A DNA stretch of 64,000 bases. Source: Parcubacteria group bacterium Athens0714_16 (GTDB taxonomy: Bacteria > Patescibacteriota > Minisyncoccia > Phycocordibacterales > 21-14-all-36-13). A program made the translations under genes and the position numbers. The notes below the pieces were generated by a model that worked only from the letters and a program-made list of their open reading frames with translations, searched no databases and was not told the origin of the DNA. The DNA lies in the NCBI GenBank assembly GCA_007376805.1, contig VMGX01000002.1, positions 47,116 through 111,115 of the forward strand, written 5' to 3'. Of the stretch, positions 2,534-62,205 are shown one piece after another (positions within the stretch are counted from its first letter, which is position 1; every line of letters begins with the position of its first letter).

Positions 2534-4066
2534 TTATGAATACGTTTTCGGTCTATATTGCAACGCCTCAAATATATGAGGTGTTTTTATTTGTTCATCT
2601 CCATTCAAATCTGCAATCGTGCGCGCAAGTTTTATTACTCTATGATATGAGCGAGCAGACATCCCTAATTTTTCAGCAGAATTATTTAATGCCATGCGAG
2701 TTTGTAAATCTAAATCAACTGTGTTTGTAATATCTTTCGCGGACATATCAGAATTTATTTTTACACCTTTAAGTTTTTCTTTTTCAAATCTTTCTTTTTG
2801 AATTTTTCTAGCCTCTTCAACCCGCGAGCGAACCCTTTTTGATTCCCCGCCATTCCCACGCATTGCTAATTTTTCATAATCAATCTTTGAGACCTCAACC
2901 CACATATCAATTCTATCGATTATAGGTCCTGAAATTTTTTTTCTATATCTATCAAGTTCAAGCGGAGAGCAGGTACATTCTTTTTCTGTTCCAAAATTTC
3001 CACACTTGCACGGATTCATCGCAGCAACGAGAATAAAGTTTGCAGGAAACGTGGCAGATCCACGCGAACGAGAAATATTTATAATTCTATCTTCGAGAGG
3101 TTGTCTCATTGCCTCAACAACTCGCCTATCAAATTCTGGAAATTCGTCCATAAATAAAACCCCTTTGTGTGCAAGAGTAATTTCTCCTGGTTTTGGTATT
3201 GTTCCACCGCCAACCATAGAAACATATGACGAAGTGTGATGTGGAGAGCGAAACGGAGGATTTGTTATTAAATCTTCATTTAAAATTCCGGCAACAGAAT
3301 GAATACTTGTGACTTCTAAAATTTCATCAAAATCCAAACGAGGTAAAATACCACAAAAAGCTTTAGCCAACATTGTTTTTCCAGTTCCCGGTGGCCCATA
3401 CATGGCAATATTGTGTCCGCCTGACGCTGCGATTTCCAAACCTCTCTTTGCAGTTTCCTGACCTTTTATATCTGAAAAATCCAAAAGTGAATCCAGCTCT
3501 TTATAAAAAATTTCTGTTTGTTCTTGCGGGTTGATTTCTGTTTTTATTTCCTTGTTCAAGTGGTCAATAACTTCTTTTAAAGAATTCGCACCGAATATTT
3601 TTATTCCATCAATAAGTCCCGCTTCAACGGCGTTGTCTCTTGGAATATAAATTTCTTCAAATCCAAGTTCTTTTGCTTTTAAAACAAGTGGAAGCACACC
3701 ACCTATTTTTCTCAAATCACCATTTAAAGATAATTCACCAAGGAACATTTTCTTTTCAGTATCAAAATTAATTTGTTTTACCGCGAGCAAATACGCAAGA
3801 GCAATTCCTAAATCAAAAATAGGCCCCTCTTTTTTTAATTGAGCCGGCGCGAGCGCGATTACAACTTTTTGATTCTTCTTTTTTGGTGACGGGAAGCCAG
3901 AATTTTTTATTGCAGCGGAAACTCTGTCGCGTGATTCTTCAACTGCCTTGTCAGGAAGACCAACGACTGAAAAAGAATGAAGACCTTTTATTAAATCAAC
4001 CTCGATGTCAATTAAGTGTGCTTTAAGTAGAGATGTTTGTGCAGAATAAACTTTTGAGAAGGACAT
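2534..4066 (-). CDS. comM: YifB/ComM family Mg-chelatase-like AAA+ ATPase
   Basis: Walker A GPPGTGKT and ComM/YifB-like N- and C-terminal regions. Start placed at MSFSKVY; the ORF is open to 4087. Confidence 0.85.
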   Translation of the reverse strand: MSFSKVYSAQTSLLKAHLIDIEVDLIKGLHSFSVVGLPDKAVEESRDRVSAAIKNSGFPSPKKKNQKVVIALAPAQLKKEGPIFDLGIALAYLLAVKQINFDTEKKMFLGELSLNGDLRKIGGVLPLVLKAKELGFEEIYIPRDNAVEAGLIDGIKIFGANSLKEVIDHLNKEIKTEINPQEQTEIFYKELDSLLDFSDIKGQETAKRGLEIAASGGHNIAMYGPPGTGKTMLAKAFCGILPRLDFDEILEVTSIHSVAGILNEDLITNPPFRSPHHTSSYVSMVGGGTIPKPGEITLAHKGVLFMDEFPEFDRRVVEAMRQPLEDRIINISRSRGSATFPANFILVAAMNPCKCGNFGTEKECTCSPLELDRYRKKISGPIIDRIDMWVEVSKIDYEKLAMRGNGGESKRVRSRVEEARKIQKERFEKEKLKGVKINSDMSAKDITNTVDLDLQTRMALNNSAEKLGMSARSYHRVIKLARTIADLNGDEQIKTPHIFEALQYRPKTYS

Positions 4067-4318
4067 GATGTATATACAATAAATCAAGAAAACAAAAAAG
4101 CAAAGAAATAATGTTGAAAAAACCTAACAAAAAATAAATTATTTCAAAAATAGATTTAAAACTACAATGTTTTTAATTTGATATTAAAAAGTTTTTTTTC
4201 ATTCACAATTGTTTCATTGTTTCATTGTTCCATTGTTAAAAACTAAAAATTAAGAACCTAGAAACTAGCCACTAGAACCTAGGCAGTGGCCTTGTTGAGC
4301 CATATTATATTAAAATAC

Positions 4319-4347
4319 TTGACAAGAAAACTCAATTATGCTATCAT
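4319..4347 (+). promoter_or_regulatory. near-consensus sigma70 promoter driving a noncoding locus
   Basis: TTGACA (4319-4324), 17-nt spacer, TATCAT (4342-4347). No ORF of 60 aa or more lies downstream until 5195. Confidence 0.6.
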
Positions 4348-4353
4348 ATAGGA

Positions 4354-4668
4354 AGATAATTAAGAGGTTTGAAATGAGCTTTCTAGGAGAACAGTGGAGA
4401 GACCACAAAATTAATAATAACCAGTGTCTCTCCAGCGTTCTCCCAGAAAGGTTAATATAGAGAGTTTCAGATAACCGAAAATGGTTATCACCAGCTAATT
4501 GGGTTGGTGTGACGCTCTCTGGGAGTCGAATTGATTGTGATTAGTCCAAGAAAAGATTAATCACAGAAACACATCTCAAAAGGAAGTGTACGACAAATAT
4601 CTGCACAAGATATGAAAGAATAAATAATGACGAACATTCCATTCTTTCATGTCGGCACTTCCTTTTTT
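4354..4668 (+). ncRNA. structured RNA of unknown class (series of long hairpins ending in a U-run)
   Basis: Hairpins read directly. 4379-4392 pairs with 4437-4450, with an inner 9-bp helix. Small hairpins lie at about 4470-4560. Nested 10-bp helices: 4579-4588 with 4656-4665, and ATGAAAGAAT with ATTCTTTCAT. These are followed by TTTTTT. I saw no RNase P, tmRNA or SRP core motifs. A 28-codon ORF (4374-4460, AAGAGG RBS) coincides with the first hairpin. Confidence 0.4.
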
Positions 4669-4816
4669 GAAGAGTTCTTTAAATAATAATTCGTAACTTC
4701 ATTCTTAATTAATTTCTCCACGAGAGAATTTGGCACGCACGACTTGTGTTTCGTCCTTACTGATGTTTTTTACACCAGATCAAGACGCAGAACACTAACA
4801 GTATGCCAATTCTCTC

Positions 4817-4872
4817 ATTCTGTCTTGAGATGCGTATCTCAACTGATGAGTCCAAAAGGACGAAACAAAAAA
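4817..4872 (+). ncRNA. hammerhead ribozyme, type III topology
   Basis: GUC(4822-4824) | stem I hairpin UUGAGAU-GCGU-AUCUCAA (4825-4842) | CUGAUGA (4843-4849) | stem II GUCC-AAAA-GGAC (4850-4861) | GAA (4862-4864) | ACA... pairing with UGU (4821-4823). All invariant core positions are present. Confidence 0.8.
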
Positions 4873-4927
4873 GTTTGTCAAACACCCGATGTTTGACAAC
4901 AGAAAAAATAAAAGTTCTTTAAAAAAT

Positions 4928-4979
4928 TTAGTTAGTTCTCTAAAATTACAAACGATTATAATTTTAGAGAACTAACTAA
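4928..4979 (+). other. perfect 20-bp inverted repeat (hairpin) immediately upstream of a small ORF
   Basis: TTAGTTAGTTCTCTAAAATT (4928-4947) and AATTTTAGAGAACTAACTAA (4960-4979), with a 12-nt loop. Confidence 0.7.
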
Positions 4980-4993
4980 TAAAGAGAGTTAAA

Positions 4994-5104
4994 ATGGAAA
5001 ACACAACAAAAAATCAAAAATGCAAAATGCTTGGGAAGGTTTATTTCACAATGCTCATCGTAGCTGTTGTTGCGTGGGCGACAGTTGTTATTTATAGTTT
5101 GTGA
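4994..5104 (+). CDS. 36-aa hydrophobic peptide (MENTTKNQKCKMLGKVYFTMLIVAVVAWATVVIYSL)
   Basis: ATG preceded by a GAGAG Shine-Dalgarno-like sequence. Single predicted TM helix. Followed by hairpin CATCGC-TTAT-GCGGTG plus a T-run. Below the ORF-track size cutoff. Confidence 0.4.
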   Translation: MENTTKNQKCKMLGKVYFTMLIVAVVAWATVVIYSL

Positions 5105-5194
5105 ATATTTTTGTTTTATTTTTAAAAAAACATCGCTTATGCGGTGTTTTTCTTTTTAATTATGGATTTAAAAGCTCTAAACGAGCTTTTAAAT

Positions 5195-5557
5195 TTATTT
5201 TACGTGTTCCAAACAAGTTGTTGCTGATGGGTTTGCGTCTAATCGCGCTTCTGGAATTTCTTTTCCACACACATCACAAATTCCGTATGTTCCATTTTTC
5301 ATTTTTTCTAGCGCCTTTTTTGTTTCGTTATATTTAATTTCAAGCTCTTTTAGTATTGCTGCATTTCCTTCAAATTCTTCAATTTCATCAGCATAATCAG
5401 TTGAATCAGCGGACGGCAAAGCTTCCTCGTCTGGTTCTGCTTCCCAGTCCTTTAGGTTGTCTGGGTTCTTTCTCCCAACACTATTAAGCTCGTTTTCCAA
5501 GAGTTTTAGTTCACTTTCAAGTAAATTTTTATATTTTTCTAATTTATTTTTTTCCAT
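5195..5557 (-). CDS. DksA/TraR family C4-type zinc-finger protein
   Basis: Coiled-coil N-terminus. C-terminal CDVCGKEIPEARLDANPSATTCLEH four-Cys motif. Confidence 0.8.
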   Translation of the reverse strand: MEKNKLEKYKNLLESELKLLENELNSVGRKNPDNLKDWEAEPDEEALPSADSTDYADEIEEFEGNAAILKELEIKYNETKKALEKMKNGTYGICDVCGKEIPEARLDANPSATTCLEHVK

Positions 5558-16352: not shown

Positions 16353-16408
16353 TGGTAGAACACGTGCTTGCCAAGCACGAGTCGGGAGTTCGATTCTCCC
16401 TACCCGCA
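16338..16408 (+). tRNA. tRNA-Gly (anticodon GCC)
   Basis: Acceptor GCGGGTA/TACCCGC, anticodon loop TTGCCAA, T-loop TTCGATT. 71 nt. Confidence 0.9.
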
Positions 16409-16544
16409 CAAAACAACGAAGTAATTTTGTGCATGGTAGAAAAAGCAAATTTATTTGCTTTTGTGGAGAATCGAAGGATTTTCTATGTTGAGCTCGAGTA
16501 TTACGAGAACGAAACAAGAAAATCACCAAGCTTTATGTAATAAG

Positions 16545-16567
16545 CGATTCTCCCTACCCGCACAAAA
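16545..16567 (+). repeat. direct duplicate of the tRNA-Gly(GCC) 3' end (att-like)
   Basis: The 23-nt CGATTCTCCCTACCCGCACAAAA is identical to 16391-16413. An inverted 11-nt T-arm fragment lies at 16465-16475. Confidence 0.75.
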
Positions 16568-16799
16568 TAGTAATTTCGTGTGTGGAGAAAAATAATTTTT
16601 TGAACACAATAATTTTAAAAATTGTCTATAAGGACATCGAAAAATTATCCCCAACGTCCTTTTTTAAAGGGCTAGAAACTGTGGATAACTATGTGTGTAT
16701 GTGTATAAAAGACAATTTTAAAAAATGTCTTTAAAAATTGATTTTTTATAAAATATGGCTTTGTGTAGGCATATTTTGTTGAAAAAGCACGCATAATTT

Positions 16800-56487: not shown

Positions 56488-57296
56488 CTAACCTTGTGTT
56501 AAGAAATATGAACGAATACAAAAAATCACTAAAAAAGCGGAGGTAATAATCTTGTTTTTGAAGGATTATCGCCCGCTTATTAAAGCGGTTTTTTTATTAA
56601 AGAAATTGGCGGAATGACTGGACGAATGAACATTGAAAAATGAATATTAGTTAAGTTTAAAAGCAGAATCCAAGTGTCTTTTTCGTGGCACTGGATTTTA
56701 AAGTATTTTTCATCTAGCGGAATAGAAATATTCCATAGAAAATAAGTTTTATTAAGTCCCGCGTGATTTAATAAAAAAATTGTGGTTTATGTAGTTCCTA
56801 ACAGGAAATACATAAGGGCGTATGGTGGATGCCTTGACTCTAAGAGGCGATGAAGGACGTGGCATGGCTGCGATAAACTTCGGGGAGGTGCCTAGCAACC
56901 TTTGATCCGAAGGTTTCCGAATGGGGTAACCCATTGTGACAAACTCACAATACTGAATTTATTCAGTGCATACCTGGGGAAGTAAAACATTTCAGTACCC
57001 AGAGGAAAATAGAACAATAGTTATTCCCTTAGTAGCGGCGAGCGAAAAGGGAAAAGCCCAAACCGAACTCTTTTATTAGGGCTCGGGGTTGTAGGACGTT
57101 AATATCATATTTATATGAAAGAAGTTACAAATGTGTTAGATAGTTGAACAAGCTGGAAAGCTTGGCCCCAGAGGGTGATAGCCCCTTAAACGAAATTTTA
57201 CACACTTCTTTGTTAATGTTCCTGAGTATCTCAAGACACGAATGGCTTGAGAGAATCTGCCGGAACTAACCGGTAAGGCTAAATACTCTTAGAGAT

Positions 57297-57339
<43 letters not shown>

Positions 57340-58679
57340 GGAGAGGGGAGTGAAATAGACCTGAAACCATATGTCTACAAGGAGTCGGAGCAGAACTCTA
57401 CTGAGTTCTTTAAATATGTTTTTTAAAATTTATAATTTATGGATTTTAAAATTAGAGAATTGAGTAGAGTTTCTGCGACGGCGTGCCTATTGAAGAATGA
57501 GCCAACGAGTTTACATGTACTGCTTGACTAAGTCCCGAAAGGACGGAGTCTAAGGGAAACCGAGTGTTAAAAGCGCGTTCCGCTTTATTGCGGGTGTAGT
57601 ATATGTAAGACCCGAAGCCAGGTGAGCTACCCATGATCAGGGTGAACTTTGTCGAAAGACAAAGGGAGGCCCGAACCGTTTAGCCGTGCAAAACTATCGG
57701 ATGAATTGTGGGTAGGAGTGAAAAGCTAATCGAACTTGGTAATAGCTGGTTCTCTCCGAAATAGCTTTAGGGCTAGCGTTTAGTTTATCTTTTGGGGGTA
57801 GAGCACTGGATGGTCTGGATAGGAGGCAACTTCACTAGACCAATCAAACTCCGAATACCAGAAGCCACTACTAAACAGTCAGACTACGGGGGCTAAGCTC
57901 CGTCGGTCAAAAGGGAAACAGCCCAGATCTCAAGTTAAGGTCCCTAAATTTACATTAAGTGCAAATAAGGAGGTGGAATTTCTCCGACAGCGAGGAGGTT
58001 GGCTTAGAAGCAGCCATCCTTTAAAGAAAGCGTAACAGCTCACTCGTTAAGAGATTTTGCGCCACAAATAATCGGGGCTAAATGTGATACCGAAACTGAG
58101 GATGTCATCACTTTATTGTGATGGCGTGGTAGGAGAGCATTCCGTTCTACTGTGAAGCCAAAGGGGTGACCCATGGTGGAGTGTACGGAAGAGATAATGT
58201 TGGCACGAGTAACCACAATTCCACTAAGAAAGTGGAACGCCGAAAGATCAAGGTTTCCTTGGCAATGTAAATCATCCAAGGGTTAGTCGGTCCTAAGGTT
58301 ATGACGAAAGTCGGAGCCGATGGACACACGGTTAATATTCCGTGACTTTCATTTATTTCGATGGGGTGACGAAGTTTAGTATGTTTGGCGCATTATTGGA
58401 TTTGCGTCTACTTTGTGAGGAAGGTGCTTAGGCAAATCCGGGCACCTGACTTTAATGTCAATTCCAAGCGAGGCGGAGAACCTGAGATTCGTCAAAGGGA
58501 ATCAAACAAAGCAAGCTTCCAAGAAAAACCTCTAAGGTTAAATAAATGAAAACCGTACCGAAAACCGACACAGGTGATCAGGTCGAGAAGACTAAGGCGA
58601 ATGAGTGAGTGTTCCCCAAGGAACTCGGCAAAAAAGCAGCCGTAACTTTGGAATAAGGCTTTCCAGCTCCAATTTTGGG

Positions 58680-58950
58680 AGTAAAATTAAATTATGAATT
58701 ATGTTTATCTTATTCAAAATGATTTTGATGGAGAAATATATATTGGACAAACTTCTGATATAAAAAGAAGGTTGGCTGAACATAATAATAAATGTCAAAA
58801 AGTTTACCACTAAAAAACGGTAAGTGGATAATTATTTATCTTGAAATATTCAGAAATAAAAAAGATGCACAAGAAAGAGAAAATAAATTAAAACAACATG
58901 GTGGTGGTAAAAAAGAATTACTTAAGCGACTAAGATATAGTTTGCTTGAG
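58680..58950 (+). other. 271-nt insertion in the terminal loop of a helix-63-equivalent hairpin
   Basis: Closed by the 17-bp helix CCAGCTCCAATTTTGGG (58663-58679) with CCCAAAATTGGAGCTGG (58951-58967). Lacks the AUAUAGUC group I signature. Confidence 0.6.
58694..58935 (+). pseudogene. frameshifted GIY-YIG nuclease gene inside the 23S insertion
   Basis: Frame 1 reads MNYVYLIQNDFDGEIYIGQTSDIKRRLAEHNNK (GIY-YIG N-half, stop at 58813). The C-half KWIIIYLEIFRNKKDAQERENKLKQ continues in another frame from about 58792, with no stop until 59028 in rRNA sequence. The shift lies near an A-run. Confidence 0.65.
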
Positions 58951-59124
58951 CCCAAAATTGGAGCTGGACGCAGCGAAAGTACCCCTGGCGACTGTTTACC
59001 AAAAACACAGCTCCCTGCGAACTCGTAAGAGGATGTATAGGGGGTGACGCCTGACCAATGCCAGAAGGTTAAACATGAGGGGTCCAAGAAGTTTTACTTT
59101 TTGGGCTGGATTATGTAAGCCCTG

Positions 59125-59159
<35 letters not shown>

Positions 59160-59611
59160 TCTCGGTTTAATTTTTAAATTGAATCGAGAAAGACTAGGAC
59201 TGTTATAATAAAAAATTGGTAACAAAAGATTGCTGCCTATTTCACGTAAAGTGAAATGTCTATAAAATTTGACCATATGCTGGGAAACCCGCGATGTATC
59301 CTTAAGTACTCGTTTAATTTTTTAAACAGTAACAAACTTTAAGGTGATGCGGAAAATCAGCAGGAAAGTTTGAATTCTTTTTAATTAAATCTAGAATTCA
59401 AAATCCTCAGAGACTAAAAGTCAGACTAAGTTGTCTACAAAAACAATTTAGAAAATATAGTCCGAACTTTGTGGCGACACAGAGAGTGAGACAGAAATGT
59501 TCTTACCTTGTATCTGCGTTCATCTGCGCCTGCCCCGTAGCTAGAGCATAGCTCTATGGTACTGGGGTATAATTTGCGTAGATCTGCGTTTGTTACAAAG
59601 TAACAAAGTTG
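59160..59611 (+). mobile_element. group I intron (ORF-less) at the E. coli 1917-equivalent position
   Basis: Interrupts CCTAAGGT|...G|AGCGTAATTCC. The 5' exon ends in U and the intron ends in G. Contains AGACTAAAAGTC and GAAAATATAGTCC core-like motifs. Confidence 0.75.
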
Positions 59612-60105
59612 AGCGTAATTCCTTGTGTGGTAAGTTCACACGTGCACGAATGGCGTAACGACTGGGGGACTGTCTCGGGGAACAGCTCGGTGAAAATACA
59701 GTATCGGTGAAGATGCCGATTACCTGCAACGGGACGAAAAGACCCCGGGAGCTTTACTGCAACTTCGTATTGAATATACGTTTCATCTGCGTAGCATAGA
59801 TGGGAGACTTTGAAGTTTGTTTTTCGGAACAGATGGAGTCAACAGTGAAATACCATTCTTATGTGATGTATATTCTAACCTCAACGGCAAAAACGGTGAG
59901 GGACATTGCGTGGTGGGCAGTTTTAGTGGGGCGCTATCCTCCTAAAGAGTAACGGAGGAGTTTATCAAGGTCAGCTAGGCGCGAATGGAAACCGTGCCGA
60001 TAGTGTAATGGCACAAGCTGGCTTAACTGCGAGACGGACATGTCGAGCAGATGCGAAAGCAGAACATAATGAACCGACGATTCGAATTAGACACGGTCGG
60101 AGATT

Positions 60106-60138
<33 letters not shown>

Positions 60139-60181
60139 GGTTCCGCCTAAGCGTTCAGAGCGACGGCGGAGTTCGGCACCT

Positions 60182-60503
60182 TAAAGTAAATTTACAAATT
60201 TAAATCGGGGTGCGACGTGAGAGATTGCGTAGCCTGGAATCAAAAACATATTTGTAGGAGAATATGTTCAGATTAAAAATATTGGCTTATAACGGTGGAC
60301 TCCATCATAAAAATTTTTATTATGGACAATACCGTGGGAAGTCTTCGTTTTCAAAAACGAATGACCCCGTAGAGACTGATGCGAAAGCAGAGAGTATTTC
60401 ATAAACGAAATGCTAATACGCCAACTCCTAACCACAATAAATTAATTGTGGAAGGAAGAAGATATAGTCCGATCCTTCTGGTAACAGAAGAAAAATGACA
60501 TTG
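60182..60503 (+). mobile_element. group I intron (ORF-less) at the E. coli ~2500-equivalent position
   Basis: Interrupts GGCACCT|...G|CGATGTCGG. Contains GAAGATATAGTCC. Shares blocks with the next intron. Confidence 0.75.
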
Positions 60504-60659
60504 CGATGTCGGCTCGACTTATCCTGGGACTGGAGAAGGCCCCAAGGGTTTGGCTGTTCGCCAATTAAAAAGTCACGTGAGCTGGGTTCAGACCGTCGTG
60601 AGACAGGTTGGTCTCCTATCTGTTGCAGGCGTCGATTTTTGAGGAGATTTGCTTCTAGT

Positions 60660-61486
60660 AAGTAATTGCTACTTCTCATAGTAATATGGGATGACAATTT
60701 GGCTAATAACGGTGAAATCTTCATAGGTTATCTGGCAGTGGAAAAACAATTAGCGCGGTCCGTTAATTGTGATAAAATTACTTGAGGACCAGATAATTTT
60801 TAAGACAATACCGTGGGAAGTCGATCTAAAATTAATTTAGCATATATCGCTGGTTTTCTTGATGGAGATGGAAGTTTAATGCTCCAAATAAAGAAAAGAA
60901 GTGATAACAAAAGAGGGATTCGTTTTATGGCGACAATATGTTTCTATCAAGATAGTCGTCACGATGAACCTTTATATTGGATAAGAAAAGAATTAAACAT
61001 AGGGTATGTTTCAAAAAGAAAAGATGGAATTACTGAATTGAGGATCAATGGATTTGAGAGAATTGAAGAAATTCTTAAAAATCTTATTCCTTATATAAAA
61101 TTCAAAAAGATACAAGCAAAAGCATTATATGATTGTTGTAAAATTTTACAAAAACCAATGAATGCTTTAAAAGAAAGTGATTTCAGAAAACTTGTAGATT
61201 TGATTCTTACAATTCAAAAAGAAAACTATGTTTCAAAGAAAAAGAAAGACAAAGAAGAATTGCTAAAACTATTAGATTTGACCCCGTAACGACTTGTTTT
61301 GTTCAATCTAATTTGAACAAACGGACTTGTATAATTTCGGAAGGTTCTGAAATATTTTAGGACAGATTTATACTTGTAATACGCCGACACCCTAATCAAC
61401 ACAAGGTTGGTGGGTGAAGATATAGTCTACACTCCTAGAAATAGGGGATAAATTCTAAATCAATTAAAAAGATTAAGAAATATGTG
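60660..61486 (+). mobile_element. group I intron with LAGLIDADG ORF in the sarcin-ricin loop region
   Basis: Interrupts CTAGT|...G|ACGAGAGGACC. Contains GAAGATATAGTCT. The ORF is inserted between the blocks CAATACCGTGGGAAGTC and TGACCCCGTA. Confidence 0.75.
60813..61289 (+). CDS. single-motif LAGLIDADG homing endonuclease (I-CreI-like)
   Basis: 158 aa. LAYIAGFLDGDGSLMLQIKKR motif and overall I-CreI-like layout. GTG start within a conserved intron block. Confidence 0.85.
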   Translation: MGSRSKINLAYIAGFLDGDGSLMLQIKKRSDNKRGIRFMATICFYQDSRHDEPLYWIRKELNIGYVSKRKDGITELRINGFERIEEILKNLIPYIKFKKIQAKALYDCCKILQKPMNALKESDFRKLVDLILTIQKENYVSKKKKDKEELLKLLDLTP

Positions 61487-61874: not shown

Positions 61875-61983
61875 GGCGGTATAGTTTAATCTGCTCTGGG
61901 CAGACTGACCAGTGGTTTTTGGTTAGGGTTAAAACGTCGCCCTTTTAAGGCGAAGAGTATTGGTTCGAGTCCGATTATCGTCA
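61875..61983 (+). tRNA. tRNA-Lys (anticodon UUU) with a 36-nt D-loop insertion
   Basis: Acceptor GGCGGTA/TATCGTC, D-stem GTTT/AAAC, anticodon arm TCGCC-CTTTTAA-GGCGA, T-arm ATTGG-TTCGAGT-CCGAT. The insert at 61891-61926 lies between AAT and GGTTA of the D-loop. Confidence 0.6.
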
Positions 61984-61989
61984 CAAAAG

Positions 61990-62064
61990 GCGGGGGTAGT
62001 TCAGTTGGTTAGAACATTCGTTTCGCAAAACGAAAGGTCGGTGGTTCGAGTCCACCCCTCTGCT
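61990..62064 (+). tRNA. tRNA-Ala-like (G3:U70; CGC-containing 8-nt anticodon loop)
   Basis: Acceptor GCGGGGG/CCTCTGC with G3:U70, D-arm GTTC-AGTTGGTTA-GAAC, anticodon stem TTCGT/ACGAA enclosing TTCGCAAA (8 nt), variable AGGTC, T-arm GGTGG-TTCGAGT-CCACC. Confidence 0.6.
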
Positions 62065-62205
62065 CGAAGTTTTTTTTGAGTTCTTTTATATGGGCCGTTG
62101 AATTAACAGACCGAGGTCTTTAGTGACTGGCGTAACAGCGCGGGCTCAACGGAACGGGAGAGCTTGGTTGGGGTAATCGGTAAATCACCCACGGTCTATC
62201 ATTTT

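Follow-up and report, generated by a model that had tools for sequence, protein, structure and literature searches.

The 64,000-nucleotide stretch of Parcubacteria group bacterium Athens0714_16 analyzed in this work (contig VMGX01000002.1; referred to as the window) carries on its plus strand, at positions 4817-4872, a complete type III hammerhead motif that is very probably a genuine member of a conserved hammerhead family. Its most likely role, we infer, is the processing of mRNA between cistrons; to the full statement, i.e. a genuine type III hammerhead that belongs to a conserved family and has an intercistronic processing role, we assign a probability of about 0.6. The identity of the element, its conservation, the covariation of its stems and its gene context were established directly by the analysis. 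Hammerheads of types I, II and III in bacterial intergenic regions and in phages have been established since 2010-2011 (PMC3088659, PMC6155905), and the function of those encoded in bacterial and phage genomes is considered an open question (PMC6155905, PMC6765202).

The cleavage triplet GUC can be read directly at positions 4822-4824, with C4824 as C17, and the predicted cut falls between C4824 and U4825. Stem I (4825-4831/4836-4842) has seven perfect pairs and a GCGU loop; it is followed by the core block CUGAUGA (4843-4849), by the 4-bp stem II, in which GUCC (4850-4853) pairs with GGAC (4858-4861) across an AAAA loop and the G10.1:C11.1 pair is present, and by GAA (4862-4864). The strands of stem III lie at 4818-4823 (5') and 4865-4870 (3'); ACA (4865-4867) pairs with UGU (4821-4823), A4868 and C4820 form a mismatch, and two A:U pairs lie beyond it. 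The core is complete (C3 U4 G5 A6 N7 G8 A9, G12 A13 A14, A15.1:U16.1, and a non-G nucleotide at 17 after U16.1). Loops close stems I and II, and the 5' and 3' ends lie within the open stem III, which is the type III topology. An earlier reading made from the letters alone (the sequence-only reading) had given exactly this sequence, its coordinates and a predicted cleavage after C4824, as direct inspection confirmed.

The pattern TGTC-N16-22-CTGATGA-N8-38-GAAAC occurs once in the 64 kb and in none of 100 dinucleotide shuffles. The Rfam model RF00008 (Hammerhead_3) aligned with the motif from end to end (model positions 1-54) with 41.3 bits, at E=7e-8 on the local stretch and at E=1.5e-5 in a permissive scan of the whole window, on both strands and with all 4227 families. 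From the Rfam scan and from R1, a family model built solely from the seven sequences of the candidate phyla radiation (CPR) described below, the window holds one intact hammerhead copy.

Homologues were found in other Paceibacterota. DksA proteins with 73-88% identity led to syntenic, dksA-linked contigs; exact-protein look-ups of PNPase and DksA returned only L001/L002, from the same organism and with 100% identity (in what follows, L003-L020 are contigs or loci of relatives or of other pattern matches and L021-L140 are IMG/VR contigs). L003/L004 and L005 carry DNA homologous to positions 4806-4943, as seen by BLAST and alignment; L011, L013, L014/L019 (Candidatus Paceibacterota SO_2017_GW3_13), L015 and L017 came from scans for the pattern in GTDB species genomes and in metagenome contigs. 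The pattern matches L010, L016 and L020 (a Lachnospiraceae contig) were dropped as chance matches in which the rest of the core is missing. An Rfam scan of the syntenic loci reported no hammerhead at E<=1, although hammerheads lie there; a 24-nt extension of stem II probably defeats the Rfam model or its filters.

The alignment of the seven distinct CPR sequences, i.e. the window and six relatives, was made with plain MAFFT (A2); a further alignment (A4) was fitted to the model. In A2 the core nucleotides are invariant in all seven members. Stem I reads UUGAGAU/AUCUCAA or GUGAAGU/ACUUCAC, and stem II reads GUCC/GGAC, GCUC/GAGC, GUUG/CAAC or GUCU/AGAC; four of the seven members carry the 24-nt stem II extension, with a conserved internal loop and a covarying CCCGCC/GGCGGG hairpin. 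In the same alignment 98.6% of the cells are paired, as compared with 38-53% when the 3' partners are slid, and seven pairs show double compensatory changes (three in stem I, three in stem II and one in the stem II extension). When viral copies are included, the set of 109 distinct sequences is 95.2% paired (35-46% with slid partners) and 18 of 23 pairs are compensatory, in an alignment that was fitted to the model and is hence biased towards the structure. As regards the tertiary contact of loops I and II that fast cleavage at physiological Mg requires, loop I of the GNGU type and loop II with AAAA or GAAA recur across the family, which suggests constraint. In five of the six distinct relatives the hammerhead fold either is the minimum free energy (MFE) structure or comes within 1-2.7 kcal/mol of the ensemble. 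The claim of a complete type III hammerhead was thus upheld, with all core nucleotides present in the window copy and, as had been proposed as a check, related loci that keep every one of them and covary in stems I and II.

The same architecture is widespread in viral contigs. A looser type III pattern (CTGTC ... CTGATGAG ... CGAAACAG) matched at least 120 viral contigs of IMG/VR (L021-L140), and R1 detects 125 viral copies, with as many as five on one contig. Among the pattern matches listed there are 97 distinct sequences; in these, stem I has 6-8 bp and a GNGU-like loop, stem II has mostly 4 bp with AAAA as the commonest loop, several copies being exactly GUCC-AAAA-GGAC, and the open stem III has 4-7 bp, 4-5 bp being common. 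A hairpin ends no more than 9 nt upstream in 80 of 96 of these copies, and a ribosome-binding site (RBS) with a start codon follows within 120 nt in 59 of 97. Viral copies are mostly intercistronic and co-oriented with their neighbours, the median distances being 35 nt from the end of the preceding open reading frame (ORF) and 32 nt to the start of the following one. Rfam scans of 20 viral loci gave 17 Hammerhead_3 matches, all of them (39.4-48.3 bits) below the gathering score of 48.5 bits. Since 17 of 17 fall below the cut-off, default Rfam annotation would miss this prokaryotic and phage type III class, and the 41.3 bits of the window element is a typical score for it. The covariance-model check proposed with the sequence-only reading therefore gave the full-length Hammerhead_3 alignment without the gathering score; this is not a refutation, because viral hammerheads of the same build also score below the cut-off, which is set by the convention of curators and does not define a hammerhead biologically. 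The statement that the element is not next to phage genes holds for this locus, but the class to which it belongs is abundant in viral contigs. In one viral contig (L089) a RAGATH-14-like match of 74.6 bits, below the cut-off of that family, adjoins the hammerhead.

The sequence-only reading had also considered the locus an orphan; instead, it belongs to a conserved operon, in which small ORFs and a structured leader RNA follow a promoter. The features that were mapped in and around it are as follows.

4319-4347, plus strand: sigma-70-type promoter TTGACA-17-TATCAT with a TG extension, 11 of 12 matches, kept in L004, L017 and L015; it heads the operon.
4354-4566, plus strand: structured leader RNA of about 210 nt, fold z-score -11.3, 83% identical to that of L004.
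4582-4668, plus strand: long branched hairpin followed by U6 (4663-4668), terminator-like, in this genome only; relatives have small ORFs there.
4673-4682, plus strand: first copy of the boundary motif AGTTCTTTAA.
4722-4816, plus strand: P0 hairpin (GAGAGAAUUUGGCA ... UGCCAAUUCUCUC), which ends 1 nt before stem III.
4817-4872, plus strand: type III hammerhead ribozyme, from the core pattern, Rfam, homologue alignments and the family model R1 (67 bits).
4875-4899, no strand assigned: 10-bp hairpin inserted 3' of the ribozyme; read on the minus strand, with CUUUUUUGU after it, it is terminator-like.
4899-4904, plus strand: second ACAGAA, a perfect complement of UUCUGU at 4818-4823; duplicated stem III strand.
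4913-4979, plus strand: portable module of the 5' untranslated region (UTR), with the second AGTTCTTTAA motif (4913-4922) and a 24-bp hairpin (4928-4951/4956-4979) that is conserved and shows compensatory changes.
4994-5104, plus strand: small hydrophobic ORF of 36 amino acids (MENTTKNQKCKMLGKVYFTMLIVAVVAWATVVIYSL) with a GAGAG RBS-like sequence 5 nt upstream; the cistron 3' of the ribozyme.
5126-5151, no strand assigned: bidirectional intrinsic terminator common to the convergent dksA-like gene.

In relatives with enough sequence the order is promoter, leader, one or two small and mostly hydrophobic ORFs, P0, hammerhead, AGTTCTTTAAA with a long hairpin and an RBS, small ORF and terminators, and the terminators that close the operon are usually convergent with dksA. 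The ORFs that relatives carry at the position of the 4582-4668 hairpin encode 47-121 amino acids, and in the window the 36-amino-acid ORF begins 122 nt past the end of the motif (4872). The small ORFs vary among genomes and switch sides, an ORF of 47 amino acids being downstream of the ribozyme in L004 and upstream in L011; ten small ORFs that flank the ribozyme gave no significant Pfam or PHROG match. In L015 the 5'-UTR module directly follows the leader. The hairpin at 4875-4899 is absent in L005, L014/L019 and L015; L011 and L017 have an unrelated short hairpin there, L004 has the hairpin with an inverted loop, and in L013 it is longer and partly duplicated.

The window is part of a low-GC bacterial chromosome (~33%), and the hammerhead sits in a 1.1-kb gap between comM (2534-4087, minus strand) and a dksA/traR-like gene (5195-5557, minus strand); the other neighbours are ksgA, a gene for an M23/LysM peptidase, pnp, a gene with an NYN domain, and xerC/D. 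The length of the comM-dksA gap varies from 97 bp in L007 to ~2.1 kb in L004, where it holds a ParE toxin pair and small ORFs; the position next to dksA is stable in most relatives. The operon is an accessory one of a narrow Paceibacterota (Parcubacteria, CPR) clade. Toxin-antitoxin pairs were seen in the variable gaps of the neighbourhood in relatives, the ParE pair at 3090-3583 of L004 and HicA with DUF7387 at 1084-1477 of L009, which marks it as an accessory-gene hot spot.

The most economical mechanism is intercistronic processing, as proposed for phage hammerheads (PMC3088659, PMC6765202). Clustered hammerheads that flank genes have been proposed to process long phage transcripts, and some of them cleave in vitro (PMC3088659); a further suggestion is that polycistronic mRNAs are processed in this manner into parts of different stability (PMC6765202). 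According to this scheme, the hammerhead would form in the operon transcript and cut it after C4824. The 3' end of the upstream product would consist of the P0 stem-loop, 8 more nt and a 2',3'-cyclic phosphate, and would shield this product from 3' exonucleases. The downstream product would have its 5'-OH directly at the stem I hairpin, followed by the UTR hairpins, the RBS and the small ORF; it would be uncoupled from the upstream RNA and probably stabilised, as is the case with the synthetic insulator RiboJ. In E. coli, transcript abundance rises ~2-fold and protein 2-10-fold when a type III hammerhead with a hairpin is placed 5' of an RBS (PMC6206723). Cleavage in vivo and its effect on expression are, for the window element, what we infer and would expect from these precedents.

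Stem III is the part in which the window copy departs from its family. In relatives it is a perfect 6-bp helix, ACAGAA/UUCUGU; in the window G15.4 is replaced by A, which gives an A.C mismatch. The short stem III described in the sequence-only reading thus departs from what is normal in the family. One A.C mismatch of stem III is also seen in L011, which is similarly weakened, and the window copy is the weakest, or among the two weakest, of the family members; its weakness is derived. The local hairpin that the sequence-only reading had named as a possible competitor of the productive fold is present in the MFE fold, and the second ACAGAA at 4899-4904 is a stronger competitor. A branched stem III, formed by the proximal ACA and the distal GAA across the inserted hairpin, was evaluated and rejected: its energy, 8.9 kcal/mol above the ensemble, does not improve on that of the canonical fold.

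Copies with a degenerate appearance were observed elsewhere. On the plus strand of the window, positions 16458-16520 match R1 with 22.3 bits and have the hammerhead layout, but the cleavage position is occupied by G and CUGAUGA is replaced by UaUGUUGA; by its sequence this look-alike should be catalytically dead, either a decayed copy or a product of chance. It lies inside the ~156 bp that separate the 3' end of tRNA-Gly(GCC) from its direct repeat (16390-16412, 16546-16568), an arrangement that looks like an integration scar. A second, truncated P0 with the 5' part of a hammerhead (AUCCUGUC-GUGAAGUG) is found in L004 (1690-1745, minus strand) and in L019 (~477-560 nt past its hammerhead); this copy runs straight into a terminator hairpin, and therefore the module seems to have been duplicated and then to have decayed.

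Several observations weigh against the preferred reading of the window copy, its processing role included. The 15.4:16.4 pair is formed in 107 of the 109 distinct family members, and the window is an exception. The second ACAGAA, 34 nt downstream, forms a 6-bp competitor helix, and the resulting four-way junction is the predicted MFE structure; folds competent for cleavage lie 5.4-8.5 kcal/mol above the ensemble (mostly 1-2.7 in relatives), or 6.5-8.9 kcal/mol when explicit alternatives are modelled, in nearest-neighbour energies that ignore the tertiary contacts of hammerheads, a limit that cuts both ways. Unlike in relatives, no ORF lies between leader and ribozyme, so that the term intercistronic fits the relatives rather than strictly this copy; the ribozyme may be poorly transcribed, given the terminator-like hairpin with U6 at 4582-4668 upstream of it, and a weak promoter-like site at 4918-4946 could give the 36-amino-acid ORF a transcript of its own. 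The gathering score of RF00008 is not reached and the default Rfam scan reports no hammerhead. The activity of the window copy is uncertain because of the A.C mismatch at 15.4:16.4 and the duplicated competitor strand; with an intact core and a weak stem III, it may cleave less efficiently than its relatives, and functional impairment of this copy is a real concern that we nonetheless rate as unlikely. The same observations could mean that the family is real and the window copy is a decaying or largely inactive relic, its RNA trapped in the non-catalytic four-way junction after loss of the upstream cistron, insertion of the terminator-like hairpin, the G-to-A change in stem III and duplication of a strand. 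Such a history would account for the mismatch (one of two exceptions among the 109 sequences), for the competitor fold, for the missing ORF that all relatives with enough sequence possess and for the extra hairpin; it would also agree with a 15-nt segment of the P0 loop (4744-4758), found in this genome only, which is 93% complementary to 4856-4870, within the hammerhead's 3' half (AAGGACGAAACAAAA), and resembles an inverted and scrambled piece of a hammerhead, and with the fact that such modules do decay, as in L004, L019 and the core-mutated sequence at 16458-16520. Against a relic stand a catalytic core and 11 pairs of stems I and II that are all intact, and a stem II that compensatory changes set apart from those of the relatives and that has the form most often seen in viral copies, GUCC-AAAA-GGAC, which argues for continued selection; stems III of 4-5 bp are common in the family, co-transcriptional folding favours the proximal strand, and L011 tolerates one A.C mismatch. 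On balance we regard the relic as unlikely.

The mutually exclusive partners of UUCUGU admit another interpretation, in which the hammerhead is not a constitutive processor but a regulated conformational switch, with cleavage gated by the proximal or distal stem III strand, by the P0 segment 4744-4758, which could act as an anti-ribozyme strand, or by convergent transcription through the minus-strand terminator, and in relatives by a factor bound to the 24-nt extension of stem II, which is conserved. Besides the two partners and the antisense segment, this is favoured by the complementarity of the stem III 3' strand to the U-tract that follows the 4899-4875 hairpin on the minus strand, by the conserved internal loop and the covarying hairpin within the stem II extension of the four members that carry it, and by the regulated cleavage proposed for hammerheads of phages (PMC3088659). 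Against it, only the window genome has the competitor strand, the antisense segment and the upstream hairpin, the extension is dispensable, three members being devoid of it, and no ligand or protein partner is indicated; the switch is improbable. A broader version, a little less improbable, would see the hammerhead as one component of an undescribed, Paceibacterota-specific and RNA-rich operon with a near-invariant leader of ~210 nt, modular AGTTCTTTAAA 5'-UTR hairpin units and shuffled cassettes for small membrane proteins, where cleavage would be gated and not constitutive, by a factor on the 24-nt extension in relatives or by competing stem III strands that overlap the minus-strand terminator in the window. 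The abundance of the class in viral contigs, with several copies per contig, the variable comM-dksA gap and the small ORFs that change position relative to the ribozyme could also indicate a mobile or phage-derived cassette in which the ribozyme serves that element, e.g. by processing or circularising its RNA, and not host expression. This is very improbable: there are no integrase, phage or transposase genes in the locus and no PHROG matches, the leader core and the CPR-type arrangement of P0 plus hammerhead had no match in 2.9 million viral contigs, a single ribozyme per locus gives no excisable unit bounded by two cleavage sites, and the dksA-adjacent position is stable in most relatives. 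Finally, a look-alike could arise by chance from ordinary hairpins and terminators in AT-rich intergenic DNA, and the region is indeed hairpin-dense (nine terminator-like sites against 1.0 expected) and the Rfam score is below threshold; this explanation is effectively refuted by the shuffles, by the E value of 1.5e-5, and by the invariant core and the compensatory changes in homologues.

Aside from the ribozyme, the operon has other elements that deserve mention. The leader core (~4427-4535, 110 nt) is nearly invariant among relatives whose DksA is 73-88% identical; the leader of L015 shows compensatory changes (alignments A3/A5) and keeps the shape of the terminal hairpin with a wholly different sequence. 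The leader had no Rfam match at E<=0.1 in the whole-window scan, and the only matches from a local scan were to miRNA precursors, far below threshold and on the opposite strand; tmRNA or another known RNA was considered and discarded, ARAGORN and Rfam being negative. It is a candidate for a new structured RNA or a riboswitch-like leader of a small-ORF operon. The motif AGTTC(T/C)TT(A/G)A (4673-4682 and 4913-4922 in the window, and also in L005, L004 and L015) recurs behind the leader, behind the hammerhead and ahead of each small ORF; it often has AGAA on its 5' side, which gives the near-palindrome AGAA-G-TTCT, and a long hairpin and RBS on its 3' side. This unit is a portable 5'-UTR or cassette boundary, and could represent an RNase site, an operator or a recombination boundary. 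The AGTTCTTTAAA block was rejected as a promoter, since the match is weak (9 of 12) and the -10 is not kept among relatives. The divergent control region of comM and the leader holds, at 4208-4237 and ~80 nt upstream of the promoter of the leader, three to four tandem copies of an 8-nt unit (ATTGTTTC/ATTGTTCC) that may be a regulator-binding array.

Other features were noted in the window. The 23S rRNA gene (56802-60656) spans 3855 nt owing to insertions; one group I intron (59214-59484) is above threshold, another (60242-60491) is just below it with 47.9 bits, and a weak third match (61270-61448) lies downstream of the gene. Insertions and introns in rRNA genes are typical of CPR bacteria. 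At 61990-62065 ARAGORN calls a tRNA of undetermined identity whose anticodon has four bases (cgca), and a partial tRNA-like match (61920-61975) lies just upstream of this call.

A type III hammerhead that processes mRNA between cistrons, the reading we prefer, can be compared with known systems. The RF00008 model is dominated by viroid, satellite and plant sequences. The window element shares with it the full-length alignment (1-54), the core positions, the closed stems I and II and the open stem III, and differs in a longer stem I (7 bp with a 4-nt loop), a plain AAAA loop II, a mismatched stem III and the score (41.3 against 48.5 bits). Bacterial and phage hammerheads (PMC3088659; de la Pena and Garcia-Robles 2010, via PMC6155905) are, like the window element, intergenic and co-oriented with the genes that flank them, with a canonical core and a proposed role in cutting long transcripts into gene-length mRNAs. 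The viral copies have the build of the window element, with a hairpin upstream and an RBS downstream; the window matches the phage and prophage class in its P0 hairpin and in the RBS and ORF downstream, and an ORF upstream is found only in its relatives. The genomic context of that class is not reproduced, given that the neighbours in the window are comM, dksA, pnp and ksgA and that there is one intact copy in 64 kb and no cluster; the cited papers stress type II hammerheads and integrase or prophage contexts, whereas the window element is a single copy in a chromosomal CPR operon. Type II hammerheads (RF02276), first described as natural examples by Perreault et al. 2011 (PMC3088659), have the same catalytic core and a similar genomic niche, but in these stem II is open and in the window element stem III is open, a different circular permutation. 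The order of hammerhead, hairpin(s), RBS and ORF, and an RNA with a 5'-OH that starts at a hairpin, are those of RiboJ (sTRSV type III, PMC6206723); RiboJ is engineered and raises transcript and protein in E. coli, whereas the window element is natural and its effect on expression is predicted by analogy. The three contiguous pairs beside the core also recall the hammerheads with an unstable stem III of avocado sunblotch viroid and newt satellite (PMC6155905); these act as double hammerheads in tandem or dimeric RNAs, and in contrast the window has no tandem copy and its relatives have a stable 6-bp stem III.

No mention of hammerheads in Parcubacteria or CPR was found in the literature set, which was incomplete, so that this is weak evidence of novelty. 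The value of the finding is incremental and the concept of the hammerhead is unchanged. It does place a chromosomal, non-prophage hammerhead in a CPR bacterium, a group with tiny genomes and little-studied RNA biology; it indicates that the Rfam Hammerhead_3 threshold systematically misses a large, phage-associated type III class, and it exposes a nearby, strongly conserved structured RNA without a family match. If cleavage were gated, this would be a natural regulated hammerhead in a candidate phyla radiation bacterium. The family offers a clean conserved operon, with a defined promoter, a leader and, in relatives, cistrons to either side of the ribozyme; its natural variants differ in the length of stem II and in whether stem III is intact or mismatched, which makes the mRNA-processing hypothesis directly testable.

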